A DNA stretch of 64,000 nucleotides from Podarcis vaucheri. Lineage: Eukaryota. The stretch lies in the NCBI GenBank assembly GCA_965113315.1, contig OZ220364.1. One strand, given 5' to 3'. Below the pieces are notes generated by a model. The model saw nothing but the letters and a program-made list of their open reading frames with translations. It made no database searches and was not told where the DNA came from. Positions 19,601-37,129 of the stretch are shown here, piece after piece (position 1 is the first letter of the stretch; each line of letters opens with the position of its first letter). The position numbers were made by a program, and so were the translations under genes.

Positions 19601-20900
19601 ACATCTTTGGCCAGGCCAGTGTAGCGAGAGCACTACTATAGCAACCAGAATCTCAGAGACTGCTCTGTTCTATGGTGCCAGAGTCTAGGTGCTGGGCAGG
19701 AATGTAGCTGTGAAGGTTGCTCTTTTAGGGTTTCTGCAGAAGGTGTCATCCAGAGGACAGATACACATGTAACTTGTGATTCTGCCATCCCATCCTAAAC
19801 CAAAGGAGAGGAGACAAAGGAATTTTGCATAAGCTATAGCAAGGAGATTGCCATACCTACACCAGTCTATTCAAAGATTAGATTTTCTCCTGGTGGTGTT
19901 GGAAGCCAGATCCATCTTCACCATGAGTACTCTATTTGGGTGAGTGAGTAGGTCTTGGCCTCCTCGATGAAGAAGGCATGGCTGCACATTTACATCTCTG
20001 AGAATCTTGCATAGAAGGCAGTATAATTGGTAGCATAGTGGGATCATCTGAATAGACAACACTGATCCCGTTATTCCAGTGTGACACTATTGGGCATTAT
20101 ATTCCCAGTGGCATCATATACCAGGCAGATTCATGTGGCCCTGAGTCTCGTCCTTCCATCCCCAAGGCCAGGGTCCAAACTATGAATATACCTCTCTTGT
20201 TCAACTCTCAATACCAGACCCTACAAAAAAATAACTGTCCTAAAAATAAAAATTTGCTTCCACATAGGCTTGTACTTCAAACTACCACAATAAAATCTAT
20301 AAGCATCATCACTTTGGGGGGCTGTTAGGTTGCCAGCGTTGCTATCTGTATTTTTCTATTTTCCCTGTGTATTTAAATATGTTAGCAAACACAAGCGAGG
20401 AATGGCAGTTTCTTGAATTCTTGCGTGAGTCCCCTCTGCAGCAATGTTGCTGACCAGATAGCCCTGCCTTGCCCTGCCTTGGTGCTGGGTGTGGCAGCCA
20501 TATAAAAACAGTGGGTTTTCTTGGTCTTTGAAATAAGCTGCCTCACTGTGAGATGTGGATGCTGGCCCATGAAAGAGGAAGTAGCATGTCAAAGCACTGC
20601 AAGGGGTCCTTATGGGCCTAGAGATGCTACTGCAGTAGATGCCAGAGTCTGCCTAATTTGGCTATGTTTTCTGCCAGGTGTAAACACTGGCTATTAAAGT
20701 GTTTTAGGGCAGGCACCAATCTAGAAGGCAGCTCCCTCTTCATGTGCATGGTATTGTCCCAGTGGTGTATGTATGTCGGACAAAGGACACCTAGGTTGTG
20801 CAAGAACAGGAAGAGATTATAGGCCCTGCAGCCAGCCCATGAGTATTGCTAAAAGTGAGAGCTGACTGTTCTAATCCTTCACTGTCTTTTGGCAGGCAGT

Positions 20901-21038
20901 ATGATCCCGGTGGCCGAATTCAAGCAGTTCACAGACCAGCAGCCTGCTTTCAAGGTTCTCAAGCCATGGTGGGATGTGTTGGCCGAGTACATCACCATAG
21001 CCATGCTGATGATAGGAGTTTTTGGCTGCACTTTGCAG
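20901..21038 (+). CDS. LRRC8E: LRRC8E coding exon 1 (aa 1-46), volume-regulated anion channel subunit
   Basis: [46 protein letters not shown] matches the LRRC8E N-terminus; acceptor TTTTGGCAG ending 20895, donor CAG|GTGAGT; 138 nt, phase 0. Confidence 0.95.
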
Positions 21039-22219
21039 GTGAGTGCGTATGGGGGGAGCCCACGCAGTGCCTAGATGCCGCCATGGTGTCATAGAATCAG
21101 AGGATTGTAGAGTTGGAAAGGACCCTCGCAATGCAGGCGTCGCAGCTAGAGCATCCGTGAAAGATGGCCGTCCAACGTCTGCTTGAAAACCTCCAAGGAA
21201 GGAGAATTGGAATCATTGGAATCTTGGGGTGATGTTCCACTGCCCGTGGAAGAAGAGGCTCTAAATGTTTGGGGGCAGTCTGGACAAGGGTGGAACTGAC
21301 CCTAGCACAGAAATGGTCAACTTCTACAGCCTGGGGGGTTGGATTCTCTGCAGCCCACCACTTGTAAGGGGTGGCGGCCTAGCACTGTGCAGCCTCAGTA
21401 ACTTAGGCAGGGAGGCTCTGTTCTCCAAACGTTGAAGACCGACTTCTCTCCTACATGGCAGAGATGAGAGATTGAGTATTGAGTTTACTGTATTCATGCA
21501 GCCTTAGTACAGAGAAGAAGGTATGGGAGCCACAACTTTTAAGATTCTATCCCATGTTACAGAAAGGGCATGAAGTATTAGGTGATATATACCAAAGCAG
21601 GCCTGGGAAGGACCTCTGTGCCATGACTTCACCTTCTCTTGCCAATGCTTTATCATAAGACTCCTCAGATCCAAAGAAGCCTACAGAGCGTTAGATCCTT
21701 GGGAAGGAAAGATAAGACATGTCTCATATAACCCCTCATTCTGTAATCAGTATGGAAAACGCAGCCCTATAGCTGACACAGCATAGAAAATGCATGCAGA
21801 CAAGTTATTAGCAGATTTATACAGGGGCAGATTTCCCCTTGGTCCCTTTAGTATTAAGACTAGATTATCAGTTCATTTAAATTAGCTCCATTTTGACTAC
21901 ACATGAAGCAGTATTAGATATTAGACTTTGTCATTTCAGACAACAGTTGGGGGAGGATCCTTTTTTAATAACACGTAGCACAAAACTCCTTAAAAGTGAA
22001 ACCAGCACATCAGAAAGAGCTGTTCTAGACCAGCCCACTCCTTGCTATGCTAGTTTTCTACCTGCAGAGACTTTTTAAAAAACATATGAAGAGGTACAGT
22101 CCATTCAGCCACTTCAAGGCTTTCCTTGTTCATCCCCACCTGATATAAACTGTTGCGTTCTACCACCAGCCTGTTTTCTATCATGTTCCTCTCTTCTCTT
22201 TCCTAACCTGATGTGACAG

Positions 22220-24472
22220 GTGACACAAGATAAGATTATCTGCCTTCCCAACCATGTGCCTGATGGCACAACCTTCACTGGTGCATCTTGTGAAGATTTC
22301 ACGAAGAAGAGAGCCAATGCCTCTGAGCCAATAGGACCCTCTGCCAACCAGCGAATGAATGGATTGAAGAACAACCTAGACCTCCAACAGTACAGCTACA
22401 TCAATCAGATGTGCTATGAGACGGCCCTCCATTGGTATGCCAAATACTTCCCATACCTCGTGGTTATCCACACCCTCATCTTCATGGCGTGCACCTCGTT
22501 CTGGTTCAAGTTTCCTGGGACCAGTTCCAAGATTGAGCATTTTATCTCCATCCTGAGCAAGTGCTTTGACTCGCCCTGGACTACTCGAGCCATCTCTGAA
22601 GTCTCTGGGGATAACCAGGAAAATGCATTCTTAGAGAAGGGGTACCGGAGGAGGAAAAGCAGTGCTCCCAGCGAGACAGCTGAACTCAACCCCCCCGGGG
22701 GATCGGTGTCAGAAAAGAAGGTTTCAGAGTCCTCCCCGGTTAGCCTATTGGACAAGAAGGAAGGGGAGCAGGCCAAGGCTCTCTTTGAAAAGGTGAAGAA
22801 GTTCCGGCTCCACGTTGAAAAAGGAGACATCCTTTACACCATGTATATCCGCCAAACCGTTCTCAAAGTCTTCAAGTTTCTCGTCATCATTGCCTACAAT
22901 GCAGCCTTGGTTTCCAATATCAGCTTCATTGTGCCATGCACTGTCAGGATGGAGGACATGACAGGCTATGACCATTTCTGCTGCAATCACACCAAAGCCC
23001 ACCTCTTCTCCAAACTGGCCATCTGCTACATCTGCTTCCTTGGCATATATGGCATGACGTGTCTCTACACCCTCTACTGGCTGTTTCACCGGCCACTGAA
23101 AGAGTACTCCTTTCAATTTGCACGCAACGAGACAGGCATCAGCGACATTCCTGACGTCAAGAACGACTTTGCTTTCATGCTCCACCTCATTGACCAGTAT
23201 GATTCCCTCTACTCCAAGCGCTTTGCTGTCTTCCTTTCCGAGGTCAGCGAGTTCAGACTCAAGCAGATCAACCTCAGTCATGAGTGGACGGTGGACAAAC
23301 TGCGGCAGAAGCTGCAAACCAACGCGCAAGGCCGGCTGGAGCTCCATCTCTTCATGCTACCAGGGTTGCCTGACACCACCTTTGAGCTGAATGAGCTGCA
23401 GTCCCTGAAGCTGGAGCTCCTCAAAGATGTGACATTCCCACCCTCAGTGACTCAGCTGGCCCAGCTCCAGGAGCTCACACTGATCAACTCTCCCGTCAAG
23501 CTCTCTTTCACCTCTCTTATGTTCTTCCGTGAGCAGCTGAAGGTAATGACTGTGAAGTTTGATGACATCAAAGATATACCACTATGGACCTACAACTTGA
23601 GAGGCTTGGAAGAGCTGCACATCTCAGGACTTTTCAGTCCAGAGATGGGCCGGGCAGGGACTCTGGAGAACCTGCGTGAGCTGAGGAATCTGAAGACCTT
23701 GACTCTGCACAGCAACATCTCAAAACTGCCACCTAGCGTGTCTGACGTTGCCGCCCATCTGCAGAAGCTCAGGATCTACAATGATGGGACTAAGCTAGTG
23801 ACCCTCAACAACCTCAAGAAGCTCTTCTCTGTGCAAGAAGTGGAGCTGATAAACTGCAACCTGGAACGCATCCCCCATGCTGTCTTCAGCCTGGTGAACA
23901 TGCAGCAGTTGGACCTCAAAGATAACCAGCTGCAGTCCATTGCAGAGATCATCAGCTTCCAGCATTGCCGCAAGCTGGTGTGCCTCAAACTTTGGCACAA
24001 CCACATTTCCAGCATTCCTGAACACTTCCGCAAGCTCAAGACCTTAGAGCAGCTTGACCTCAGCCATAACCGCATTGAGGTCCTCCCTTCCCAACTATTC
24101 CAGTGTTCTAGGCTGCACACTTTGGACCTTTCCTATAACAATATCCAGGTCATTCCCCCTGGGATGGGAGTCCTGCAGAGCCTTCAGCATTTTGCCATTT
24201 CTCACAACTCCTTAGAGGCACTGCCAAATGAAATCTTCTTCTGCAAGCAACTCCGGGTTCTCAAAGTGGGACACAACAAACTGCATCGCCTCTCTGACCG
24301 CGTGAGTTGGCTGCCTTCGCTCTCCACGCTAGACTTGAGAGGAAATCCCCTTCAGGCCCTTCCCTTGGAGATTGGCCAGTGCCCAGTGCTCAAACGGAAT
24401 GGCCTGCTGGTGGAGAGCAGTCTTTATGAGGCGTTGCCTATGGAAATTAGGGAGAAAATGGAGGATCAGTGA
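22220..24472 (+). CDS. LRRC8E: LRRC8E coding exon 2 (aa 47-796): TM2-4 and complete LRR domain
   Basis: Acceptor GACAG|GTGACA; LRRC8 motifs [48 protein letters not shown]; many LxxLxLxxNxL repeats; joined CDS 2391 nt = 796 aa; lies upstream of MAP2K7 as in mammals. Confidence 0.95.
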
Positions 24473-24639
24473 TGAGGAGAATGATAAAGGGGACAGGGGT
24501 GTCCTCTCATGTGTTGGCCCCTTTGAGTCCAAGCATGGACTGAATGGGGGAGCTGGCTGGACTTCTATCTTCGGCTGGAACCAAGGAGGGAATGGGAACT
24601 TTTCACCCTAATAAGGGAGCAAAGGAATTGAAAAGACAC

Positions 24640-24645
24640 AATAAA
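24640..24645 (+). other. Candidate proximal polyadenylation signal for LRRC8E (alternative ATTAAA at 25864-25869)
   Basis: AATAAA about 170 nt after the stop codon; usage unknown. Confidence 0.3.
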
Positions 24646-25937
24646 GAGCAAAAGTAGAAAGTGACTTTTAAAAAAATAACCCTGTTTTCTGAATGGATAA
24701 GACCACAGGAATTGTCCATTGGGGCGGGGGCGGAAGCACAGCTACACCTGACCAAATCATCATTATAGCTATTTTTGTACATGTGTTGTGTACTGGTGTA
24801 TCTTTGTGAAATGCCCTGGGGCTTTGCGGGATTGTTCTGTTCAAAACTCCTATCTCTGCTCCCTTCTCCTCATCAATGTGTTCAGCTCGCAGGCCTGTAG
24901 CTTACAAAGCCCATCTTTTGAGCTTATTAGAAAACTTTCTTTTCTGCAGTTTCAAATTCCTATATATCATGGGGTGGGGAATCAGGGACAGGCAACTCTT
25001 CAACAGGGAAATAGCCTAATTCCTTTTACTTCTTTGTTCAAAGAAGGGCTGTGTTCCTTAGCACTGGACAGACAGAGCACAATGCCTTCACATACCACTG
25101 ACTGTAAGGAATCTTCTTATGTTTGTGTGTGTCTGTGTACATATGCATGTATACCTTAATCCCTTCTGGTTTCTGTTTTTGTCACATTCTAATCAGGGTG
25201 ACATTAGTTTATCAGTTCTTCTTGAGTGCTAGAGCTGAACTTTCTGGCTGTTCAGATCTCTTCCCTCTTCAGGCTAGGAGAGCCTAGCACCACAGATCCT
25301 CTTCAGAACTCACTTCCTCTCTCATTACCTTCTCACGTAATTTCAGTGAGCACCACACATGGAAGAGAGGAGGAATCCTGCACTGTGAAAACCCATCCTC
25401 ACTACCACTTATGAAAAGCCACCTTATTTCCCCCTGGAGCCTTTAATCAGTTCTCCACATATTCCAATCCCAGCATAGGTTGAAGTCGCTTTCTCACTCC
25501 TCCTATAAGCACAGACATTCTTTCTACCCATTTTCTGTAATCAAGGCAGGTAAGTGCCTTTTGCTTAGCACATGAAGGGAGATGTGGGACTTCCCAGGTG
25601 GCTTGGGCTTGCTTCTGTTTCATCCCTTTGGGTCTCAGCTCTCTTACGGCCTCTTGAGACGCAAGCAGACTCTTCTGGGCCTGCCGTAACCTGGCCTTCT
25701 CTTCCTGCTTTACCTGATTGCAGAGCACTTTGGGGCATGTAAAAGCCATTGGAAAAGGGACCCTGCTTCCTCAATGGCAAAGCAACTCAAAGCTGGTCTC
25801 AGAATCCTACCTGTTGGCAGCAGACTCCTTCATATCCAGTTAAAGTATGTTTAGAAAAAGTTTATTAAAAATAAGAGAAAGCTGAAATGCATGGCATTAA
25901 GAAACAATAGTGCACACTTTTAGCAGATGCTATGCTA

Positions 25938-25940
<3 letters not shown>

Positions 25941-25981
<41 letters not shown>

Positions 25982-25999
25982 GGGTGTGTGTGTGTGTGT
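25941..25999. repeat. Compound (CT)n/(GT)n microsatellite
   Basis: Direct tandem repeats. Confidence 0.9.
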
Positions 26000-26822
26000 A
26001 ATGTTCCTAACCCCTACTTGTCTTTGCTCATAGAGTTGCTTTGTCCTTAGAAACCTCACAATCTGGTCCGAAATAGTTTAGTTCATATGTCTTCTGCCAG
26101 ATTCAATACACAGAGGTGGTTGGATAATGATTTCACCTTCCATTTGTTGAGAACTAGTTGCTTGAGGGAACTTTCACAATAAGGGAGAGGTTGCAGTAGT
26201 CCCTGGTAATTATTGTTTTGGTTAATGAAGTCCTAAATTCAGAGCCTGCTGAACAACGAAGGCTGAAGTCCTGTGCACACATAACGGGAATAAATCCCAC
26301 TTGCACTTGAGTCAGCATTCATAAGACCAAATAGAAAGGTGGCAAGGAGACAGCCATATCTATTTGCACTCTTACCAGCAGTCCTTGGGACTCAGCTGCT
26401 GAGCCTTGCTTTTGACAGGAGCAAGCTGTGCCCTACACTGGGGCAACCAGGCAACCAGCCAGCCAATGCTTCATACCTGGGAATGGCACAATAGGCCTCA
26501 TTCCTCATGCCCTGGTGGTTGAAGGGGGAGGAGGAGATGGGTGGGAATGTGAAGCAATGGGTGGGAAGGAGAACCTGCTATGTGACTCACTGAGAGAAAC
26601 CAACCAACATAGCTGCATTTTGGGAGTGCTTCTGAGGCCATAAAATTGGAAGAGGCTGTTCTGCAGCAAGGTTGTAAAACAGGCCTGTTGTGCAGGAACA
26701 TGCTTTAGTAGCATGAATAACACTGATGGTGTTAACACTGTGGTGGGTGGCCTGGTGTTTACATGAGCATGCACCAAAGTAATTATTTGGCAGTTCACAC
26801 AGTTCCTGGCAAAATGCATTTA

Positions 26823-27040
26823 CAGTGGTACCTCAGGTTAAGAACTTAATTCGTTTCAGAGGTCCGTTCTTAACCTGAAACTGTTCTTAACCTGAAGCAC
26901 CACTTTAGCTAATGGGGCTTCCCGCTGCCGCCGTGCCACGATTTCTGTTCTCAACCTGAAGCAAAGTTCTTAACTCAAGGTACTATTTCTGGGGTAGCGG
27001 AGTCTGTAACCTGAAGCGTCTTTAACCTGAGGTACCACTG
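26823..27040. mobile_element. Tc1/mariner MITE (same family as 9443-9668)
   Basis: TA TSD; TIR CAGTGGTACCTCAGGTTAA ... TTAACCTGAGGTACCACTG. Confidence 0.9.
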
Positions 27041-27337
27041 TACTTAAAAGACTTAAATAACTTTGGGGGGGGGGGGGTAGAAGAAACGCCAGCAGAATTA
27101 AAACAGATGTAAAACATTGTAAAAGGCCAGAGTCAATGTAAGAGATCTTCAGTTAATTGGGTAGGAGGCGTAACTTAGTGGTAAAGCACATGCAAAAGGC
27201 CACCTCAGTCTCCAGGTGAAGGATAACAGGGGATAGCTAATATTCACCTACTTGAGCCGCTGCTCAGAGTAAACATTACTGAGCTAGATGGACCAAGAGC
27301 CCTACCTGGTATAAGGTAGAATCCTATGTTCCCATGT

Positions 27338-27700
27338 AAAAGGTAAAGGTAAAGGTACCCCTGCCCGAACGGGCCAGTCTTGACAGACTGTGGGGTTTGT
27401 GCGCCCATCTCACATTTATTGGCCGGGGGCCAGCGCTGTCCGGGGACACTTCCGGGTCACGTGGCCAGCGTGACATCGCTGCTCTGGCGAGCCAGAGCCG
27501 CACACGGAACGCCGTTTACCTTCCCGCTGGTAAGCGGTACCTATTTACCTACTTGCACCCGGGGGAGCTTTCGAACTGCTAGGTGGGCAGGCGCTGGGAC
27601 CGAACAGCGGGAGTGCACCCCGCCGCGGGGATTCGAACCGCCGACCTTTCGATCGGCAAGCCCTAGGCGTTGAGGCTTTAGCCCACAGCGCCACCCGCGT
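27338..27700 (-). mobile_element. Sauria SINE, different and CpG-rich subfamily
   Basis: (AAAGGT)n tail, GGATTCGAACC (B box on minus), many intact CpGs. Confidence 0.9.
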
Positions 27701-28802
27701 GTACTTGGTACTAAAAGGATATAAAGTGCCAGCTGGGCTTCCTGGAGAGGACATTCCATAAATGTGGTGCCACCACTGAAAAGTCCCTTTCTCTGATCTC
27801 CCCCCCCCCGTCTAACCTAAATAGGTTGAAACACTTAGAGATGGGCCTCGGAAGATGACCTATGCATTTGAGCAGAGACCATGAGGCTGCAATCCTAACC
27901 CCAGCACCTGGGAGTAAGCCAGGCAAGCGAGAAGCACAGTTCAAGGCCACATTCCAAGGAGACACCTGAGGGCCAATGAAGGGTGTGGCCTCAGGAGGAG
28001 GCGTGGCCTAGGGAGAGGTGTGAAGGGCCTGCATCTCTCCCTCCCTGCCCAGGTCTGAAGTTCCCCAGGGAGGTTCAACTGGTGCCTTCATTATACACCT
28101 TTAGATGCCAAGCAAAAATGTTCCTCTTCAACCAGACCTTGGGCTGATTGACATCTTATACCCCTTTAAAAATTGTGTGTGGGAGGGGGTGAGCGGGGTT
28201 ATTGGTCTGTGGTTTTTTTTGTTCTTGTTTTTATCATGTGCTTTTATATTGTATTTTTAGGTTGTGAACTGCCCTGAGATATGTGGGCAAAGGACAGTAT
28301 ACAAATGTAATAAATTATCGTCTAAGCAGTACACCACTTTAGGTTTCAGGCAAGGAGTTTGGGAAAACACTGCACCGCACCACAGAGGAGTCTGTCAGAA
28401 ATAGTTGGGATTGTCACTATGTACATCCACTGCCTTTGATATGGGCAGTGACTGAAAGGGTCCAGACATGATGGATTAGATGTCGGGCTGGATCATTTGC
28501 TCCAGTAGCTACTTATGCCAGTCTTGGATACCCGACAGATTTATATTCTCTCTTCGATCAGAGGCCTTCAACTGGTGGATTGGGGACTCACTACCAGGTT
28601 GCCTGATCTAAGGTGGGTCACAACAGCAGCACTACCACCATACAAATGTATGGAATGAATGAATGAATGAATGAATGAATAGGTCCCCAAATACTTGTTT
28701 GGATTACATAGGGGTCCTGTGTATGAAACCGCAGAATATTGTTGCAGTTTAAACATTTATGTGCTATGTCACTAGGTTCATTGGCTGTGTGTTGGAGCCT
28801 AA

Positions 28803-28815
28803 TGCCACCTAGTGG
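28803..28815 (-). promoter_or_regulatory. Candidate CTCF site between the two LRRC8 genes
   Basis: TGCCACCTAGTGG reads CCACTAGGTGGCA on minus, a close match to the CTCF core consensus. Confidence 0.45.
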
Positions 28816-30099
28816 TTAAAATTATTCAAGCACCTCAAAGAGCAATCATAAAATGCACTTTTATTTGTGGTGGGTGTTCAAACTCTACTAGTCAAGGCTT
28901 TTCAGGTATAAGGCAAATAGCCGATTCTTCAAACCCCACTGAAGACTCAGCCTACGCACCACTGTGATTTGCTCTCCTATGTGATCAATTAGCTGCAGAC
29001 TTCCTTTTGGAAGGGAAGGTTATACATTTTTAAAGGGAATAAATAAATAGGTGGCCACTTTCTATTCCTAATATGGAATTAAGCCTCCTTACCAGTCTTC
29101 ACAGCATACAGATTTCTGGGATCACAACCAACCACATTGTTCGGCTGAGTCAGGTCTTACAAGACTGTATGTGGATAGAGTGGGTGATTATGTTCCTGTA
29201 TTGCACAAGTGAAAAATAATGCAACTTTAAGGAGAGATTTTGCAAAACTGAATCAAGGAATACAGTACATAAAACCTTGACCAAAATATATTGCATCTGT
29301 GCCAACTCTGACCACACATCAGAAAGGGAGGGACCTACCAGCTGATACATGCAAAAGACATGAGTCAGTCAGGTTTCAGGTCTTGTTATGGGACCTAGAG
29401 AAGCTGAGGGAGCTGAGAAAGAACAGGTGGGTGGTCCAAAACAGGGACAGTAGCTTAGGGTGCAGGCATCACAACAGAGAAGAGTCCCTCAGACTGGGGC
29501 TAAGGCTTTATTGGGCCTAGTGGACAGGGATTGGCCTTTGAGGGTCACATGACTGAATGCTCAGGTAGACCAGTATTACATGTCGTTGAAGCAGAGTTCA
29601 GCCTGCCAAACATGCAGTTAAAGCAGAGTCCTGGTGCTGCAGAGATTAAGACACCAGTCTGCTGGGAGTCCTGGTTTGTGCACACACAGTGGGTGCCATG
29701 TAACAGGCCTCTGCCTCCAGGGAGCTTGCAGTCTACAAGAGCCAGTATGCTGTGATGGCTATCATGTTGGTATTATACCAGGATCTTCAAACTGACCTGT
29801 ATCAACTTGCGTGCCCTTCCCTTTCTCCTGTGTGGCTAGAATTTCCATGTGCGTCACATTCTTCAAAGTTTCAATTAGTCCTTGATTCATTCTGAAAATC
29901 TTTTAGCCTCGTTATTTCAAAGTTGTGTAATGCAGGAACAGAATTCTTGCTCAAGCCACTCCACCCATCCCTGATGACCTTATGGCTGTTATTATCAGCC
30001 TTCCCTACCTCAAAGGGTTGTTATGAAGAGCAAATGAAGGCAGGGAACTATGTTTTGTGGGTGAGGAGTTCTCTAGTGGTTTAGTGGTCTTAGCTTAGC

Positions 30100-30162
30100 C
30101 CCTTCCTTCCTTCCTTCCTTCCTTCCTTCCTTCCTTCCTTCCTTCCTTCCTTCCTTCCTTCC
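30100..30162. repeat. (CTTC)n microsatellite
   Basis: Direct tandem repeat. Confidence 0.95.
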
Positions 30163-32919
30163 CTCCCCCCTCTCTCACATTTTTCCACTGTGAGTTACAG
30201 AAGACAGAATAAGAAGTGTGAGTGTGGGAGTTTGTCACAACTGGTAGCAATCCCTTTGCAAGCAAATGAATTCCGAGCAACGAGTTTTGCTTCCCTCCTC
30301 CTTCCTCCAGTCCTTTCGTCCTGCCTGGAGCTGCCATGGAAACGGAATAAAGCCTCTTGCACTGAGTACAGTGTGGTGTGCAGGCTTAACGCACAAGCAA
30401 AGGAGAGGGTCTGGGAGAGAAAGATCCTTGCAGACGGGAGAGAAAAGAGCAGAGGTTGTGCATGAAGAGTTCTAGAACCGCCTGCAGGTGAGGAATTGAT
30501 GCCAAATGGGATAAGGAAGTCAGAGAGGGGCAGAAGGTTGGCATGTAACCCTTCCAGTGTTATAACCACAGCCAAAAAAATGCTTGTGTCTATGCATGCT
30601 AAAACCACCCTTCTAAATGATATTTAAGGACAGCCTGCTGCAGATCTAGCAACAGTGAAGTGGTTCTGTTTCAAGGCTAAGTGTCTGGGAGTGCATGTTT
30701 TGTTGGTGGATGTTTTAGGGTGCCCCCAAACTGTTGATATTTTGTGGGAGGAATACACACACATACTGGAACTTTAGGTTTGCACAATTAAAGTGGATTG
30801 CAACCCTCTGTCATCCTAGTGTCACAAATCCACTTTAAATAAACAACATTGGACTTTTCGCAGTTTGAAAAGTGATGGGGAAATGCATTCAAAAGTGTGG
30901 GATGAGTGAATTATTATTATTATTATTTATTAAATTTGTATAACACCCTATTCTTGCAGGTCTAAGGGTGGTTCAATGACACGTAAACACCCTGCATGCA
31001 AATAAGGGTAAATGTAAGATAAATACTCTTTGTCATATAACTACCCCATAAACAAATCAGAACAAACGCTCAATGAAGATCAGACATTGACCAACTATTG
31101 TGTAAGCTTATCAGGATCATAGCTGTCAACGTTTTCCTTTTTTTAAGGGAAATTCCCTTATTCCGAATAGCAAGAAAAGGGAAAAGTTGACAGCTATGAT
31201 CAGGATGAATGTTGAATAAACAGGTTGTCTGGAGGAACCCCGAGTATCGTGAACAAACAACAACATTTTCAGCAGCAACAGCCAAAAGGAATTGGAATCT
31301 AAAGCAACAGCTGCTTTCAGAGACACCAGGATTAGATCCTCTCACAAACAACTTTTAGCACAAATGTGCAAATCACTTATTGGTATCTCTGCTTTTCAAC
31401 TTCAGGTAACAGTAATTCTTCCATCTACTCAGAGTAAGATATCATTAAGCCTAGGCCATTTCCCACTTGCCTGATCCACTGTAGGACGTGGAAAACAAAG
31501 ATGGGGAAATGGAAAGTTGCCTAAACGCCACAGAGTAAACCACCCTCTGTACAGCCTTAAGGCATTTTTCCATCTTTCCGCTTTCCACAAAGCGAAGTCT
31601 AGTTATAGGATCTAAGGAGAAACTGTGAGTAAGGAAGTGTTGTTGCTATTTATGACTTGGAGAGCATCTTGGCAGATGGCTATATGAATTATAGTCTTAG
31701 AATTTTTTAAAAAAACACATATTGAATCTTTTTCAAGCCACTCCATCTCATTGCAATTATTCTTATTATTCAATTAGGTATTTATATCCTGCTCTTCTGC
31801 GCCAAAAGCATAATCAAGACAGCATGCAGGATAAAATAATAACAAAAACAAACTAAAATGCAATGTTAAAAACAATAACAAGGAAGCCACAATAGCAGTA
31901 AAAAAAGCAGGGTTATTTTTTTAAAAAAAGTGTCCATAGGTCAGGGGTGGGAAACCTGTGGCTCTCCAGATGTTGTTGCAGACTCCTCAGTGGCAAGGGT
32001 TGATAGGAGCTTGAGGACTCATCTACATTAGTACGGAAAAGGTGTTTTATATGTGTTATAACACTGTGACACCAGATAGCACTGTGGAATTCCGTTTTTA
32101 GCCAACATGCTTTCCCACTATGTTGTTTACAACATGTTTTCCTGAAACACTTTTTTAATGTATCTAGATCCAGCCTAAGACCAGTGACAACTGGAGGGCT
32201 ACAAGTCCTTCCCTGCCCTAGATTATTTATTTTTTTTACATTTGGAATGGCAGTTGCCAACTCAGCATCCACAGATGCCCTGCTGCCCACATTGGTGCCC
32301 CTGGGTGGGGGAGGACAAATTATGAGCTTTCATCTTTTTCTTTTTTTAAAAAAAATAAGGCTCTAGCCTTCCAGGAAAGTTATGAAGCAAAACATACAGG
32401 TACCCTTCTAAGTGATTTTTGCAAGATGGGGGCTGCTGCCTGTCAATGCTTTTAACCAGCGGATGAAGCTGTGATTGATAAATGTGTTGTTTAGACACCA
32501 GGCATTAGGAATCCCTGGGATCCTAAAGAGCTACTGTTTCCCCCTGTCCTTTAGCGCACTTTTCCTGTTTCTGTCTGTCTTATTTATAGTCTTTGGATTC
32601 TCTTTAGTTTGCCCTTCTTTTCCCCGTAGCAGCCAGGATGCATCTTCCCTAAGGTCTCTTAGTGTTTACTAGGGCTTATTCCCAGGTAAGTGAGTGCAGG
32701 ATGGCAGCCTAGACTTTGGTTTATGGTTGACACTCAGGAAACAGGAGGTTCTTGTGTCTTTGGCAGCTGTATGGCAGGCAGAAACTCAACAGGTTAAGGC
32801 AAGCCTTTCCTAGTATGGAAAGCCTCGCCATAACTGTTCTGTCTCTAAGTTTGGGTTATGCCTGACCACTTTGTTCATCAATGACGGCGCTATCAATAGT
32901 GCCACACAATGCCCGCTGT

Positions 32920-33130
32920 ACCAGGAGAGGAGCATTCAGTGTGGCAGCATCAAAACGATGGAACTCCCTCCCAATGTGCATTATGCAAGCGCCTTCTGTT
33001 TTATAATTTCAAACACATTTCTGTTTAACCAAGCCTTCCTTGAAGTGTGACCAGTTCTGTATTTTAGTCATTTATCGCTGAACAGTTTTAATGTTTAACT
33101 TTTTATATTGTTCTGAGTAACTTTGTATTG
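32920..33130 (+). mobile_element. L2-type LINE 3' fragment
   Basis: AGAGCATTCAGTGTGGCAGCA...TGGAACTCCCTCCC (RAFSVAA..WNSLP-like). Confidence 0.55.
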
Positions 33131-33144
33131 CTCACAGTTTAGGG

Positions 33145-33175
<31 letters not shown>

Positions 33176-33266
33176 GCACTAGCTAAATGTGCTAAACATG
33201 CAGACTTTGTTTCAGTGCAATAGCCAAGGATGTTACTCAATTCCCACTTACCATTTGCTTCTAGTG

Positions 33267-34430
33267 ATGTTTAACCTGACAGAAGTGACCTTCCTCGGTG
33301 ACGCCCACGCTCGGTTCCAGACTCTAAAGCCTTGGTGGGATGTCCTGATGGACTACTTGGTAGTAGCGATGCTGATGGTCTCTCTCCTCTCAGGTACTCT
33401 GCTGATTTCTGTTGACCATATGACCTGCTTGCCTCTGAATTACAAGCTAAATGAGACCACAGCAGCTATGCTCAAGCCTGGAGCTATGAACAGTGCCACC
33501 AGTGAAGAGTTTTCTGCTGAGAACAGTGGACGCCCAATCAACCTTGACTACCAGCAGTACCTGTACATAAACCATGTCTGCTATCAGAATGCTTTGCCTT
33601 GGTTCTCCAAGTATTTTCCTTACCTAGCACTTGTCAACTCACTGATTTTAATAGCAAGCAGCAACTTCTGGTTCAGGTACCCTAAGACGTCCTCAAAGAT
33701 CGAACACTTCTTATCCATCCTCATGAAATGCTTCGAGTCACCTTGGACCATCAAGGCCGTCTCTGAAATGGTCTACCAGAATTTCCTAGACCTACCCCAA
33801 ACCACGGATACTAGAGGGTGTCAAGAACAATTTATTTCCCCTTCATCCTCTCCTATCCTTGACTGGAAGGAGAGGGAGCAGGGCCGGGCACTCTTTGAGA
33901 AGATCTGCAGATTCAGGGCACATGCTGAAGGTGCCAGCTTGATTTATATGGTCTACATGGGACAATCAATCTTCAGAGTCGCCAAGATCCTAACTGTGCT
34001 GGGCTACACCTCCAACTGCATAGGAGCCATCTCCTTTGAACATGTTTGCTGGCTGGACACAGAGAACCTCACCGGCTACTCTGTTTTCCTCTGTAACCAC
34101 AGCTTGGCTTTCATTCTGCAGAAGTTGATGGTGACCTACCTGTTCCTGGTATTCCTCTATGGGGTGGTGGGGGCTTACCCACTGTTGTGGCTGCTGCGGC
34201 AGCCGCTGCAGAAGTATTCCTTTAAGCAAATGCGAGAAGACAGTCACTTTCTTGGCATCCCAGATGTCTACAACGACTTTGCTTTCCTCCTGCACATGGC
34301 TGATCAGTGCGACCAGCTATACTCCTGGCGGTTTGCCATCTTCCTCTCAGCCATGAGCAAGAGCTCTTTGCTGGATGTGGGCCTTGAACACAAGGCAAGT
34401 ATTGAAGGGCTGCAGCTGCATGTGCATTGA
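33267..34430 (+). CDS. LRRC8D-like paralogue, 387 aa: four-TM pannexin-like domain with no LRR domain (functional truncated gene or young pseudogene)
   Basis: Acceptor TTTGCTTCTAG ending 33264, then TG-ATG; MFNLTEV...[15 protein letters not shown] (Cys54), NLDYQQY, ALPWFSKYFPYLAL, SSNFWFRYPKT, CFESPWT, AISFEHVC, DFAFLLHM are LRRC8D-type motifs; no stop or frameshift until TGA at 34428-34430. Confidence 0.85.
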   Translation: MFNLTEVTFLGDAHARFQTLKPWWDVLMDYLVVAMLMVSLLSGTLLISVDHMTCLPLNYKLNETTAAMLKPGAMNSATSEEFSAENSGRPINLDYQQYLYINHVCYQNALPWFSKYFPYLALVNSLILIASSNFWFRYPKTSSKIEHFLSILMKCFESPWTIKAVSEMVYQNFLDLPQTTDTRGCQEQFISPSSSPILDWKEREQGRALFEKICRFRAHAEGASLIYMVYMGQSIFRVAKILTVLGYTSNCIGAISFEHVCWLDTENLTGYSVFLCNHSLAFILQKLMVTYLFLVFLYGVVGAYPLLWLLRQPLQKYSFKQMREDSHFLGIPDVYNDFAFLLHMADQCDQLYSWRFAIFLSAMSKSSLLDVGLEHKASIEGLQLHVH

Positions 34431-34640
34431 GACTCAAGGGCATCAGAGAATTAAGGCTTCACAAGGCTGCCAGGCTACCTAGGGCCCTCTTCTGTGAAAT
34501 GGAAGTCCTGAAGCTTGCAAACAGTCCCAGACTAAAGCACCCAGAAAAATAGGTATACTAACCTTTCTTAATCCTCATTGGTCAAGATGGGCCCCACTGA
34601 CCTAGGAAGGCCCACAGTATTCCACATCACATTTCCTGAC
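34431..34640 (+). pseudogene. Frameshifted remnant of the first LRRs of the LRRC8D-like gene
   Basis: Shifted frame 34448-34552 reads ELRLHKAARLPRALFCEMEVLKLANSPRLKHPEK* (compare LRRC8D ELHLFMLSGVPDAVFDLTDLDVLKLELIPEAKIPAK); further shifted pieces GILTFLN and VKMGPT...VFHITFPD (compare SQMTNLQ and AKVEQT...CLHVKFTD). Confidence 0.7.
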
Positions 34641-34751
34641 AGGTCTCCACCAGTATCTCTCTAGCAACTTTGGCAAGATGAAAGATGCACTGTTCAGACC
34701 TGTCCTTGTTGGGCTGGGATTATGAATATGGATTTCATATGGATATGGAAG

Positions 34752-34935
34752 AAGGGGTACAGCTCAGTAGTTAAGCATGGGGTTTGTATGCAAAAGATCC
34801 TGGGTTCAATCGTTGGCATCTCCAGTTAGGGCTAGGAAAGGCTCCTGTCTGAAACCATGGAGAACTGCAGCCGGTCAGTAATACTGATCTAGACAGACCA
34901 AGAGTCTGATCCAGTTTCAGGAGCCTCTGATATTC
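34752..34935 (+). mobile_element. tRNA-derived SINE; related decayed copies at about 27165-27332(+), 10230-10370(-), 7525-7630(+)
   Basis: AGCTCAGTAGTT A box, GGTTCAATC B box, GGCATCTCCAG..AGGGCT.GGAAAG body. Confidence 0.65.
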
Positions 34936-35030
34936 TGATTAACTGAGGGCTGAAGATAAGGCAAATTCACAACTGGATCCTTTAACTTTCTTTTCTATTT
35001 TAATGCAGTACTTTTTATTAGCTGCTCTGC

Positions 35031-35036
35031 AATAAA
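35031..35036 (+). other. Candidate polyadenylation signal of the LRRC8D-like gene
   Basis: AATAAA about 600 nt downstream of the stop, preceded by a T-rich tract. Confidence 0.35.
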
Positions 35037-35093
35037 AACAACAGGTACCTGCATTGCCTGTGAACTTTCCTCCCTGGGGTTAACAACAGTGCG

Positions 35094-35128
<35 letters not shown>

Positions 35129-37129
35129 TGTGTTGGGGGGGAGGGATCAAGGAATTGGTACCAATAATTGGAAAACTTCAATAGAAACCAAAGCCTCTTC
35201 TGTATTTCTGCTTAAAACAGCAACAAAACAACAACAAATAATACACTGACCTGGGAATAAGTCCAATAGGGGCATACTTTTGAGTAAATATGCATAGGAT
35301 TTCTGTAGCATTTATTACATCTGTTTTAGCCCTGAGATATTAACAGAGAAGCAGATTTGAGCTGGCATGATTTTCCTGAGCTATGCTGAAAGTAAACACA
35401 CGAGCACATACAAATTAATGTATAAAACTGTAACATTTTCTCCAAATGATCTTTTCAATGTTTGTTTGTTTGTAAAAAAAGAATTGCAGGACTCTACAGT
35501 TTCAGTTTAAGAGTGTAAGGAGTTGTAGGTAGTGAAATGATCCACTTTCTGAAACCAAAGGAGAATATTAGTCATATGATGGCACAATGGGCCATCAGTG
35601 TCCCTGGCTGTTAGCCAGAAGGTTGGGACGGCTGTGAGCAGGATTCCTGCATTGCGGGAGGTTGGACTAGATGACCCTTGGGGTCCCTTCCAACCGTATA
35701 ATTCTATGATTCTGTTTCCAAGCCGTTCATATGTTAATGAAACAAGTGTGGGTTCAACAAGCCCGTCTGCCAAAACAAAGAAGATATGTCCTCCTGCATC
35801 TCCCTTTCCTGCCTGTCTTACAGGAATGACACTTTAAGGATATATGAAAAATGTGTCAATGAGACACTGACGTAAGAGGTGTTTCTTACAGCAAGAATGA
35901 AAAATCACCATAACCTGGGGAGGCCTTGTAGCCCTGCAGTCAGAAACAATGATTTACAGTACAATCCTATACATGCCTATCCAGAAGTTCTATTGTGGTT
36001 AATGGGGCTTCCTAAAGTAAGTGGATATAGGATTGCAGTCTTCTTAACTGTTAAGCAGATTGACAAAGGGCTAGTCCACACTTTCACTTATGCCATGCAT
36101 AGAAAGCATGGGTCCAAGCAGTTTCCTGCAGATTTCTGCATGACCCACACTTTCAAGGCATGGGTCCAAGCAGTTTCCCCCTTGCCCCACTCCTTTCCAA
36201 TTGAAAATCTGCTCTTTAGCAGCAGGATGAGAGGAAGTGTGGATAAGCTGGGAGAGCGAGCTCACAAAGTAACCTTAGTACTGTAGTCTCTAGTTAAATG
36301 AGACAGCTCTGTGGTGTCCCCAGTTCCAAAAACAATTCAGGACAATGTCCCTTATTTTAAACACAAACAAGGAAGAATGCCAAAAACAGAAAGGAGCAAC
36401 ATAGTGGAACTCAGAAGACAAAAAGTACTGTACTCCCATAGAAATGAAATGGCCTGTTATGGTTTGCATTTTGCTGGAAGAAACCTATATTATTATCAGA
36501 ATGTTCTGGCTGAAGGCAAAACATACTTAACTGTAGCTAAAGTCACACAGGTGATGTTATCTGAATTAGAGCTGACAGACCATGGCAGGAAAGTCAAAGG
36601 ACAACCAGTACGTAAAACTAATTAATGCATCTCCCCCTCCCCCTCCCCCCCGCCAGCATTGCACCTTCCACAGAAAAATTCTAGGAGTCTGTAAGGATTC
36701 AACATTTCCTTCTGATACAATCTGTAAATGTATTTTTATGTAGGTAAGAATCAAGTAGGTAAGGTGTGGGGAACCCATGGTCCTTCTCCACACATTTCTA
36801 GACTACATGTCCTATCATCCTTGATCCTTAGTAATGTCAGCTGATGGTGATGGGAGTTGGAATCCATCATCTGGAGGGTCCGAGGGTTCCCACCCCTGAA
36901 GTAGAAGGCATATATTTAAAATTAAAGATGTGTGTGTCTTAGGATGGAGGCGTGTGCACACGTATATACACATGCAGTTTTCTTCTTAAACCCTAACTTG
37001 ATCACCATCTAAGAGAATGTAATAAAGGCTTGCTTTGCTCTGTACTTTGGTAGCTGTTATCTCATAACATGCTTTCCCATGTACTTCTTCATGCAGCGCA
37101 TAGTTAAACTATGAAACAGGAGGCAGTGA

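Follow-up and report, generated by a model that had tools for sequence, protein, structure and literature searches.

A pore-domain-only LRRC8 protein of squamates, probably retained as a working channel subunit

Squamates carry a real and conserved gene of the LRRC8 family whose product is confined to the pore domain. We describe it here from Podarcis vaucheri, in a stretch of 64,000 nucleotides of contig OZ220364.1 (assembly GCA_965113315.1); this whole stretch is referred to as the window. Comparison of protein sequences indicates that the paralogue very probably lost its domain of leucine-rich repeats (LRRs) at a time when the living squamate lineages had not yet diverged, and that purifying selection has kept the pore domain ever since.

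The open reading frame extends from the ATG at 33267 to the TGA at 34428-34430 and encodes 387 amino acids without an internal stop, in agreement with the preliminary description, which had seen no disablements in the 1161 nt preceding the stop. The splice acceptor AG (33263-33264) is located two bases upstream of the ATG. PF12534, the pannexin-like region of LRRC8 proteins, is the sole Pfam match (E 1.4e-108), and the layout of the protein comprises an N-terminal helix, four transmembrane (TM) helices, two extracellular disulfides, CTH1-2 and a degenerate CTH3 tail. An AlphaFold model based on an alignment of 123 rows has a pLDDT of 83.7 (about 65 past residue 370), and its top Foldseek match is the pore domain of LRRC8D (chain 9dx7_E, E 4e-30); the product of the truncated gene is predicted to fold as a complete LRRC8 pore domain. 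Its last residue, H387, corresponds to position 419 of human LRRC8C (offset +32 to 8dr8_F). On the upstream side the gene is adjoined by LRRC8E, and the gene beginning about 3.9 kb past the stop, with exons within 38300-62000, we take to be MAP2K7. A fused rattlesnake model (P0050) shows the same gene order, LRRC8E followed by the pore-only gene. A SINE had been noted behind the LRR remnant, and a tRNA-like head was indeed found there with ARAGORN at a relaxed threshold; the right end of the insert was judged by eye (Table 1).

Table 1. Features of the pore-only gene and its surroundings, in window coordinates
Feature	Position	Strand	Evidence
Pore-domain-only LRRC8 protein, single coding exon, 387 aa	33267..34430	+	ORF, Pfam, structure
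Pyrimidine tract and AG splice acceptor	33245..33264	+	Sequence; X1 contig start 33266
TGA stop on conserved-Arg position	34428..34430	+	Profile alignment
Remains of the initial LRR-domain codons, frameshifted and now in the 3' UTR	34431..34572	+	Frameshift-aware alignment
VFHITFPD, probable distal LRR remnant block, marginal after correction	34617..34640	+	Shuffles
tRNA-headed SINE-like insert in 3' UTR	34740..34930	+	Head 34740-34823, ARAGORN
AATAAA polyadenylation signal	35031..35036	+	X1 contig end 35069
Non-coding DNA homologous to C-terminal tail of toxicoferan orthologues	35354..35425	+	Tail placement scan
Intact LRRC8E, 796 aa, exons 20901-21038 and 22220-24472	20901..24472	+	Sequence, spliced reads

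LRRC8D, with which the gene had been compared initially, is not its proper comparator; a separate sister paralogue is. This follows from a tree of 86 pore-domain rows, which was built by a quick method with SH-aLRT supports only and includes no identified LRRC8A row. In this tree, the 22 squamate rows are grouped together (SH-aLRT 100) and have six full-length turtle rows as their sister group (90), and the meeting of the long turtle and squamate branches carries a long-branch warning. Both groups are nested in a clade of 51 rows (93) in which branching tracks the species tree and which also includes amphibians, lungfish, coelacanth, ray-finned fishes and cartilaginous fishes. The 51-row clade is set apart from the true LRRC8D of Podarcis, Rhineura, Hemicordylus and Erythrolamprus, which makes the gene a jawed-vertebrate sister paralogue of LRRC8D. 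Orthology with LRRC8D itself was rejected because of the separate clade, the presence of a true LRRC8D in squamates and the neighbouring LRRC8E.

[quoted passage not shown] It shares the single coding exon and the same four extracellular cysteines, and Y95 of the window protein occupies the filter position where LRRC8D has F or Y. In contrast to LRRC8D, the window protein lacks an LRR domain and adjoins LRRC8E, and it is 43% identical to the full-length LRRC8D of its own host lineage. The full-length 'LRRC8D-like' proteins of turtles, amphibians, lungfish, coelacanth (named si:ch211-106h11.1 in UniRef), ray-finned fishes and sharks are orthologous; their pore domains are 45-55% identical to that of the window protein, but they have kept about 390 LRR residues. 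Sharks, fishes, amphibians and most turtles thus possess the paralogue at full length, and we found no clade member from mammals, birds, crocodilians or tuatara among the matches listed (48 at a length of 212-678 aa, plus the best 120 from each of two sets of 883 and 476 longer ones). The squamate proteins are public and already labelled 'LRRC8D-like' in RefSeq, the window protein being 97% identical to Podarcis and Lacerta proteins. Other records are mislabelled: a pore-only protein of Crotalus adamanteus (P0188) is named lrrc8e, a turtle orthologue (P0383) integrin alpha-X, and P0050 is a fusion with LRRC8E. Abascal and Zardoya reportedly named a sixth paralogue 'LRRC8F' in 2012, which may cover the sister paralogue. 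Neither the paralogue nor its truncation in squamates was found described in listings of the open-access literature.

By descent in the quick tree the window protein belongs to LRRC8, although it is not a member of canonical architecture, as the C-terminal domain of 13-17 leucine-rich repeats that characterizes the family is absent from the squamate protein. A pannexin identity was considered in view of the shared four-TM large-pore fold without LRRs. It was rejected since PF12534 is the sole Pfam match, no pannexin occurs in the 50 fold matches listed and, in contrast to pannexins, the protein nests in LRRC8. Among the 50% representatives there are also distant LRRC8-like proteins, whole or fragmentary, of roughly the length of the pore domain (about 350-420 aa), for example P0222 with 389 aa and no LRR matches. 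The LRRC8 genes B, C and D occur in tandem, including the human C-D pair (PMC12182595, Table 1, cited in part), and the position of the sister paralogue beside LRRC8E mirrors this C-D tandem, pointing to an origin through genome duplication. Birds are reported to lack LRRC8E (PMC6679542, cited in part).

The stop codon was said to fall on an arginine of LRRC8D, and the TGA does align with the Arg of the motif VSRD/VGRD in the full-length orthologues as well as in LRRC8D. LRR similarity past 34430, which had also been claimed, was confirmed by frameshift-aware alignment of a profile of 27 full-length orthologues to 34431-34745 under three frameshift penalties. The score of 42.5 was reached by none of 150 shuffles (20.0 +/- 3.1, maximum 33.1), and 38 flanking windows aligned to the same profile scored at most 24.8. 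Of the lesions counted by eye (one nonsense change plus at least three indels), the stop, a -1 shift at about 34438 and a two-codon gap were recovered under all three penalties, whereas a +1 shift at about 34514 and a -2 shift at about 34533 were seen solely at the lowest penalty of 8. The -2 shift brings in the block KIGILTFLN, up to 34572; when three amphibian orthologues were aligned singly, this block was reached via one -1 shift. Farther downstream, VFHITFPD is collinear and matches the expected VLHIKFTD. At its fixed position no shuffle out of 3000 did as well, but with any of 60 reference positions allowed 10 of 200 did, and the match is therefore marginal. No further collinear LRR match above chance was obtained past 34549 by tblastn of four full-length relatives against the window, from which the remaining LRR codons (about 310, beyond 34640) are missing. 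The LRR half is thus shredded, as had been described, only just past the stop; its bulk is gone rather than decayed.

The asymmetry of decay between the two sides of the stop holds numerically: with four to six lesions in 209 nt, the 1161 coding nt should carry 22-33, whereas they carry none. Because the first stop itself defines the boundary, this sum is weakened, and the argument is carried by cross-species data and not by lesion density alone. The proposed CGA>TGA transition is possible at this Arg position, but since the stop is lineage-specific (lacertids and Rhineura), it is not established as the founding lesion.

All 28 squamate proteins compared, from geckos to snakes, end near the pore/LRR boundary, at window-equivalent positions 377-433, and have unrelated tails; isoforms, duplicates, a partial Varanus model (P0018) and the short records P0016, P0217 and P0182 were left out of this count. 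Together with the constraint on the pore domain described below, this supports the earlier proposal that the LRR half was lost long ago while the pore half stayed under selection, and that the truncated protein is probably functional. Squamate pore-only proteins account for 16 of the 48 matches in a search restricted to 212-678 aa, and cluster look-ups add further species. Neither the best 120 of 883 nor the best 120 of 476 long matches include a full-length squamate representative of the clade; what squamates contribute there is true LRRC8D or the fused model. LRR Pfam families, which were found in turtle and caecilian orthologues, are absent from all five squamate proteins scanned.

The exact ends differ between groups: 387 in lacertids and Rhineura, 383-386 in skinks, 377-381 in geckos and 383-433 in toxicoferans. 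Only lacertids, including five further proteins with the same end residue as the window protein, and Rhineura share the position of the TGA at the Arg; skinks and geckos end one residue before it in the aligned motif, or sooner. Expressed in LRRC8C numbering, the squamate ends span 409 to 465 (415-418 in skinks). The tail of the Elgaria protein could be placed in the window at 35354-35425 (rank 1 of 127,852 placements, 52 versus 40 for the next, stop on stop), where four other toxicoferan tails taken together rank 12. Nine tails were tested singly against the window, of which eight were at chance level, Elgaria being the sole match. The homology at 35354-35425 indicates that toxicoferans joined the pore domain to DNA about 930 nt downstream, and, judged from sequence, either a deletion or splicing to the AG at 35353-35354 could have formed this junction. 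No convincing similarity was detected between squamate tails and the LRRs of two orthologues (best cases 8 and 14 of 200 shuffles). The C-terminus of the Hemicordylus protein (P0010) seems to be back in the old LRR frame (QVEMRLCKL versus GRLELRLCAL, with 14 of 200 shuffles as high), hinting at survival of an LRR remnant in cordylids.

Constraint was analyzed at the protein level in 22 squamate proteins and 44 other relatives. The disulfide cysteines C54, C105, C261 and C276 are invariant in 22/22 and 44/44 sequences, respectively. Sites invariant in the relatives are mostly also invariant in squamates (65 of 82), compared with 10 of the 101 sites that vary in the relatives; variability per site is correlated between both groups (Spearman 0.58, 363 sites). 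Mean identity among squamates amounts to 0.91 in TM1 and TM2-IL, 0.81 at 313-363 and 0.36 at 364-387; the pore domain is thus constrained up to CTH2, and constraint stops at about LRRC8C-equivalent 395. With a squamate tree length of 2.25 changes per site, about 46-50 nonsense changes would be expected under neutrality; none of the 22 pore domains contains a stop, a count biased by the fact that protein collections contain open frames only. A pseudogene would be expected to show disablements and relaxed constraint along its entire coding region, which is not apparent from the sequences, and the squamate gene very likely encodes a functional protein under selection. It nevertheless evolves several-fold faster than LRRC8D (window versus Hemicordylus 79%, the LRRC8D pair 97%) and also faster than LRRC8E (70% versus 82% to rattlesnakes). 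Squamate-specific residues (N124, K320, C348, W354), fixed or nearly so, replace residues conserved in the family, and C348 and W354 lie in helices adjoining the lost domain. L368 of the window protein, which is equivalent to L400 of LRRC8C and L402 of LRRC8A (offsets +32 and +34), is invariant in the 44 non-squamate relatives and kept in 11 of 22 squamates. The CTH3 Trp is missing in all six turtles as well, and decay of the tail is therefore not specific to LRR loss.

A few records deviate. The gecko-like P0016 loses the frame at about residue 270 (window numbering), before TM4; P0217 (Salvator) has 155 aa, and P0182 (Anolis carolinensis) has 125 aa, though a 432-aa model exists for the same species. 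These may be model errors or true lineage losses. In sea turtles, the models of Caretta and Lepidochelys leave the frame at 'GRDA', three or four codons beyond the lacertid stop position; P0199 enters the same wrong frame, the Eretmochelys record is flagged as low quality and the Chelonia model skips the region (turtle orthologue records P0017, P0384-P0386, P0059, P0061 and P0199). Identity of sea turtles to Emys is 0.87 in the LRRs versus 0.93 in the pore domain. Going by these sequences, either an independent truncation at the squamate boundary or early decay may be under way.

Reads from four of 24 listed runs (X1, X21, X23 and X24) were inspected over 20000-36500. X1, from a relative and guessed to be RNA, yielded one contig of 1829 nt at a depth of 21.7, spanning 33266-35069 and so reaching from the splice acceptor to 33 nt beyond the AATAAA. 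The LRRC8E exon bins are empty in this run, so that neither genomic DNA nor read-through is a likely source of the contig in this sample. Among the indel rows listed, the X1 gaps in the pore-only gene are at 34465 and 34685, both past the stop. The stranded RNA runs X23 and X24, from another relative, have reads over the ORF in the sense direction only; depth is 0.3-2 there, 12-48 over LRRC8E and 0.2-3.8 at 29918-31019, and because depth over the ORF is no higher than in intergenic DNA, read-through could explain the X23/X24 signal. X21 has no reads over the ORF. Judged from read depth, the pore-only gene probably yields an independent, tissue-restricted mRNA. Sense-strand reads also extend several kb beyond the LRRC8E stop (24472-31000), which suggests a long LRRC8E 3' UTR plus weak read-through.

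What such a protein might do can be judged from human precedents. The de novo allele LRRC8C p.L400Ifs*8 of TIMES syndrome and the laboratory construct t419 likewise have the whole pore domain and no LRRs and stop a few residues at most from the squamate ends, but they concern another paralogue and have opposite effects, whereas the squamate form is a fixed wild type. L400Ifs*8 retains LRRC8A in pull-downs and passes currents in isotonic conditions; t419 assembles but shows very low currents, and t379 gives no protein (PMC11729881, cited in part). The region missing in t379 is present in all squamate forms. Changes at L402 open the channel (PMC13586329, cited in part), although these data concern the A subunit and not a non-A subunit. 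A 458-residue LRRC8D chain in PDB 9t5p was not taken as a precedent, its paper making no mention of a truncation.

We consider it likely that squamates have a sixth paralogue which lost its LRRs, kept its pore and is predicted to serve as a partner of LRRC8A with reset gating. By analogy with every other non-A subunit, the pore-only subunit would quite likely co-assemble with LRRC8A as a minor VRAC subunit. With each such subunit the cytoplasmic LRR ring would have one gap and an ordered CTH3 helix would be missing, which should uncouple gating from swelling. Given assembly with LRRC8A, the channel could well open more easily or at a basal level; a damped current is possible but doubtful, and a change in substrate or trafficking only would be unlikely. 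The end of constraint at about 395, the retention of the L400 equivalent in 11/22 squamates and the scattered ends (409-465) resemble the CTH3 loss of the gain-of-function allele, while the lacertid end at LRRC8C 419 points to damping.

In a variant that we regard as unlikely, the pore-only subunit would join LRRC8A channels or trap LRRC8A and cut the swelling-activated current. The lacertid end is that of t419, skinks end close to it, and the ebouriffe truncation of LRRC8A also lowers or abolishes activity (PMC11729881, cited in part). However, t419 has a native CTH3, whereas in squamate tails the likeness past 363 amounts to only 36% and the end positions vary, and a pure decoy would not obviously require conserved pore-lining and N-terminal residues.

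Less likely still is an LRRC8A-independent, homomeric, pannexin-like large-pore channel in the plasma membrane or an organelle. LRR-less LRRC8C forms heptamers alone (PMC11729881, cited in part; 9ezc, seven chains), a structure of the LRRC8A pore domain exists (6g8z), and the new fixed squamate residues suggest an altered role; but other paralogues need LRRC8A for surface delivery (PMC12182595, cited in part). LRRC8 has been proposed to originate from fusion of a pannexin with LRRs (PMC5064130, cited in part), and it is similarly improbable that squamates reversed this fusion to obtain an LRRC8A-independent or constitutively open channel of their own, with sea turtles repeating the truncation independently.

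A plain or slowly decaying pseudogene, whose asymmetry would be due to chance or to a boundary picked at the first stop, is very improbable. The faster evolution compared with LRRC8D, the low depth in two runs and lack of reads in a third, the three short or broken records, the fresh frameshifts of sea turtles at the same boundary and the absence of mammals, birds, crocodilians and tuatara from the matches listed would fit this explanation. Yet the pore frame is open in 22 lineages despite the nonsense changes expected, its constraint pattern fits the fold, and the lesions predicted for the 1161 nt are missing. That a full-length protein is restored because the assembly is wrong, the stop is read through or an LRR exon farther away is spliced in is extremely improbable, as five further lacertid proteins share the end residue, read-through adds seven residues before a TAA, no LRR exon is found up to the next gene, and the X1 contig is unspliced across the stop to the polyadenylation signal, its listed gaps lying past the stop.

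The pore-only gene is therefore probably not a dead gene: on sequence grounds it probably encodes a working channel subunit that lost its cytoplasmic regulatory half early in squamate history, and it adds a sixth, database-mislabelled paralogue to the usual five of the LRRC8 family. The question of how VRAC is gated by its LRR ring is being approached with disease alleles and engineered cuts, which have given opposite results only a few residues apart. A wild-type subunit without LRRs, available with many natural tails and with full-length turtle and amphibian orthologues as controls, represents a series for addressing this question, and the squamate series bears also on the human LRRC8C truncation disorder.
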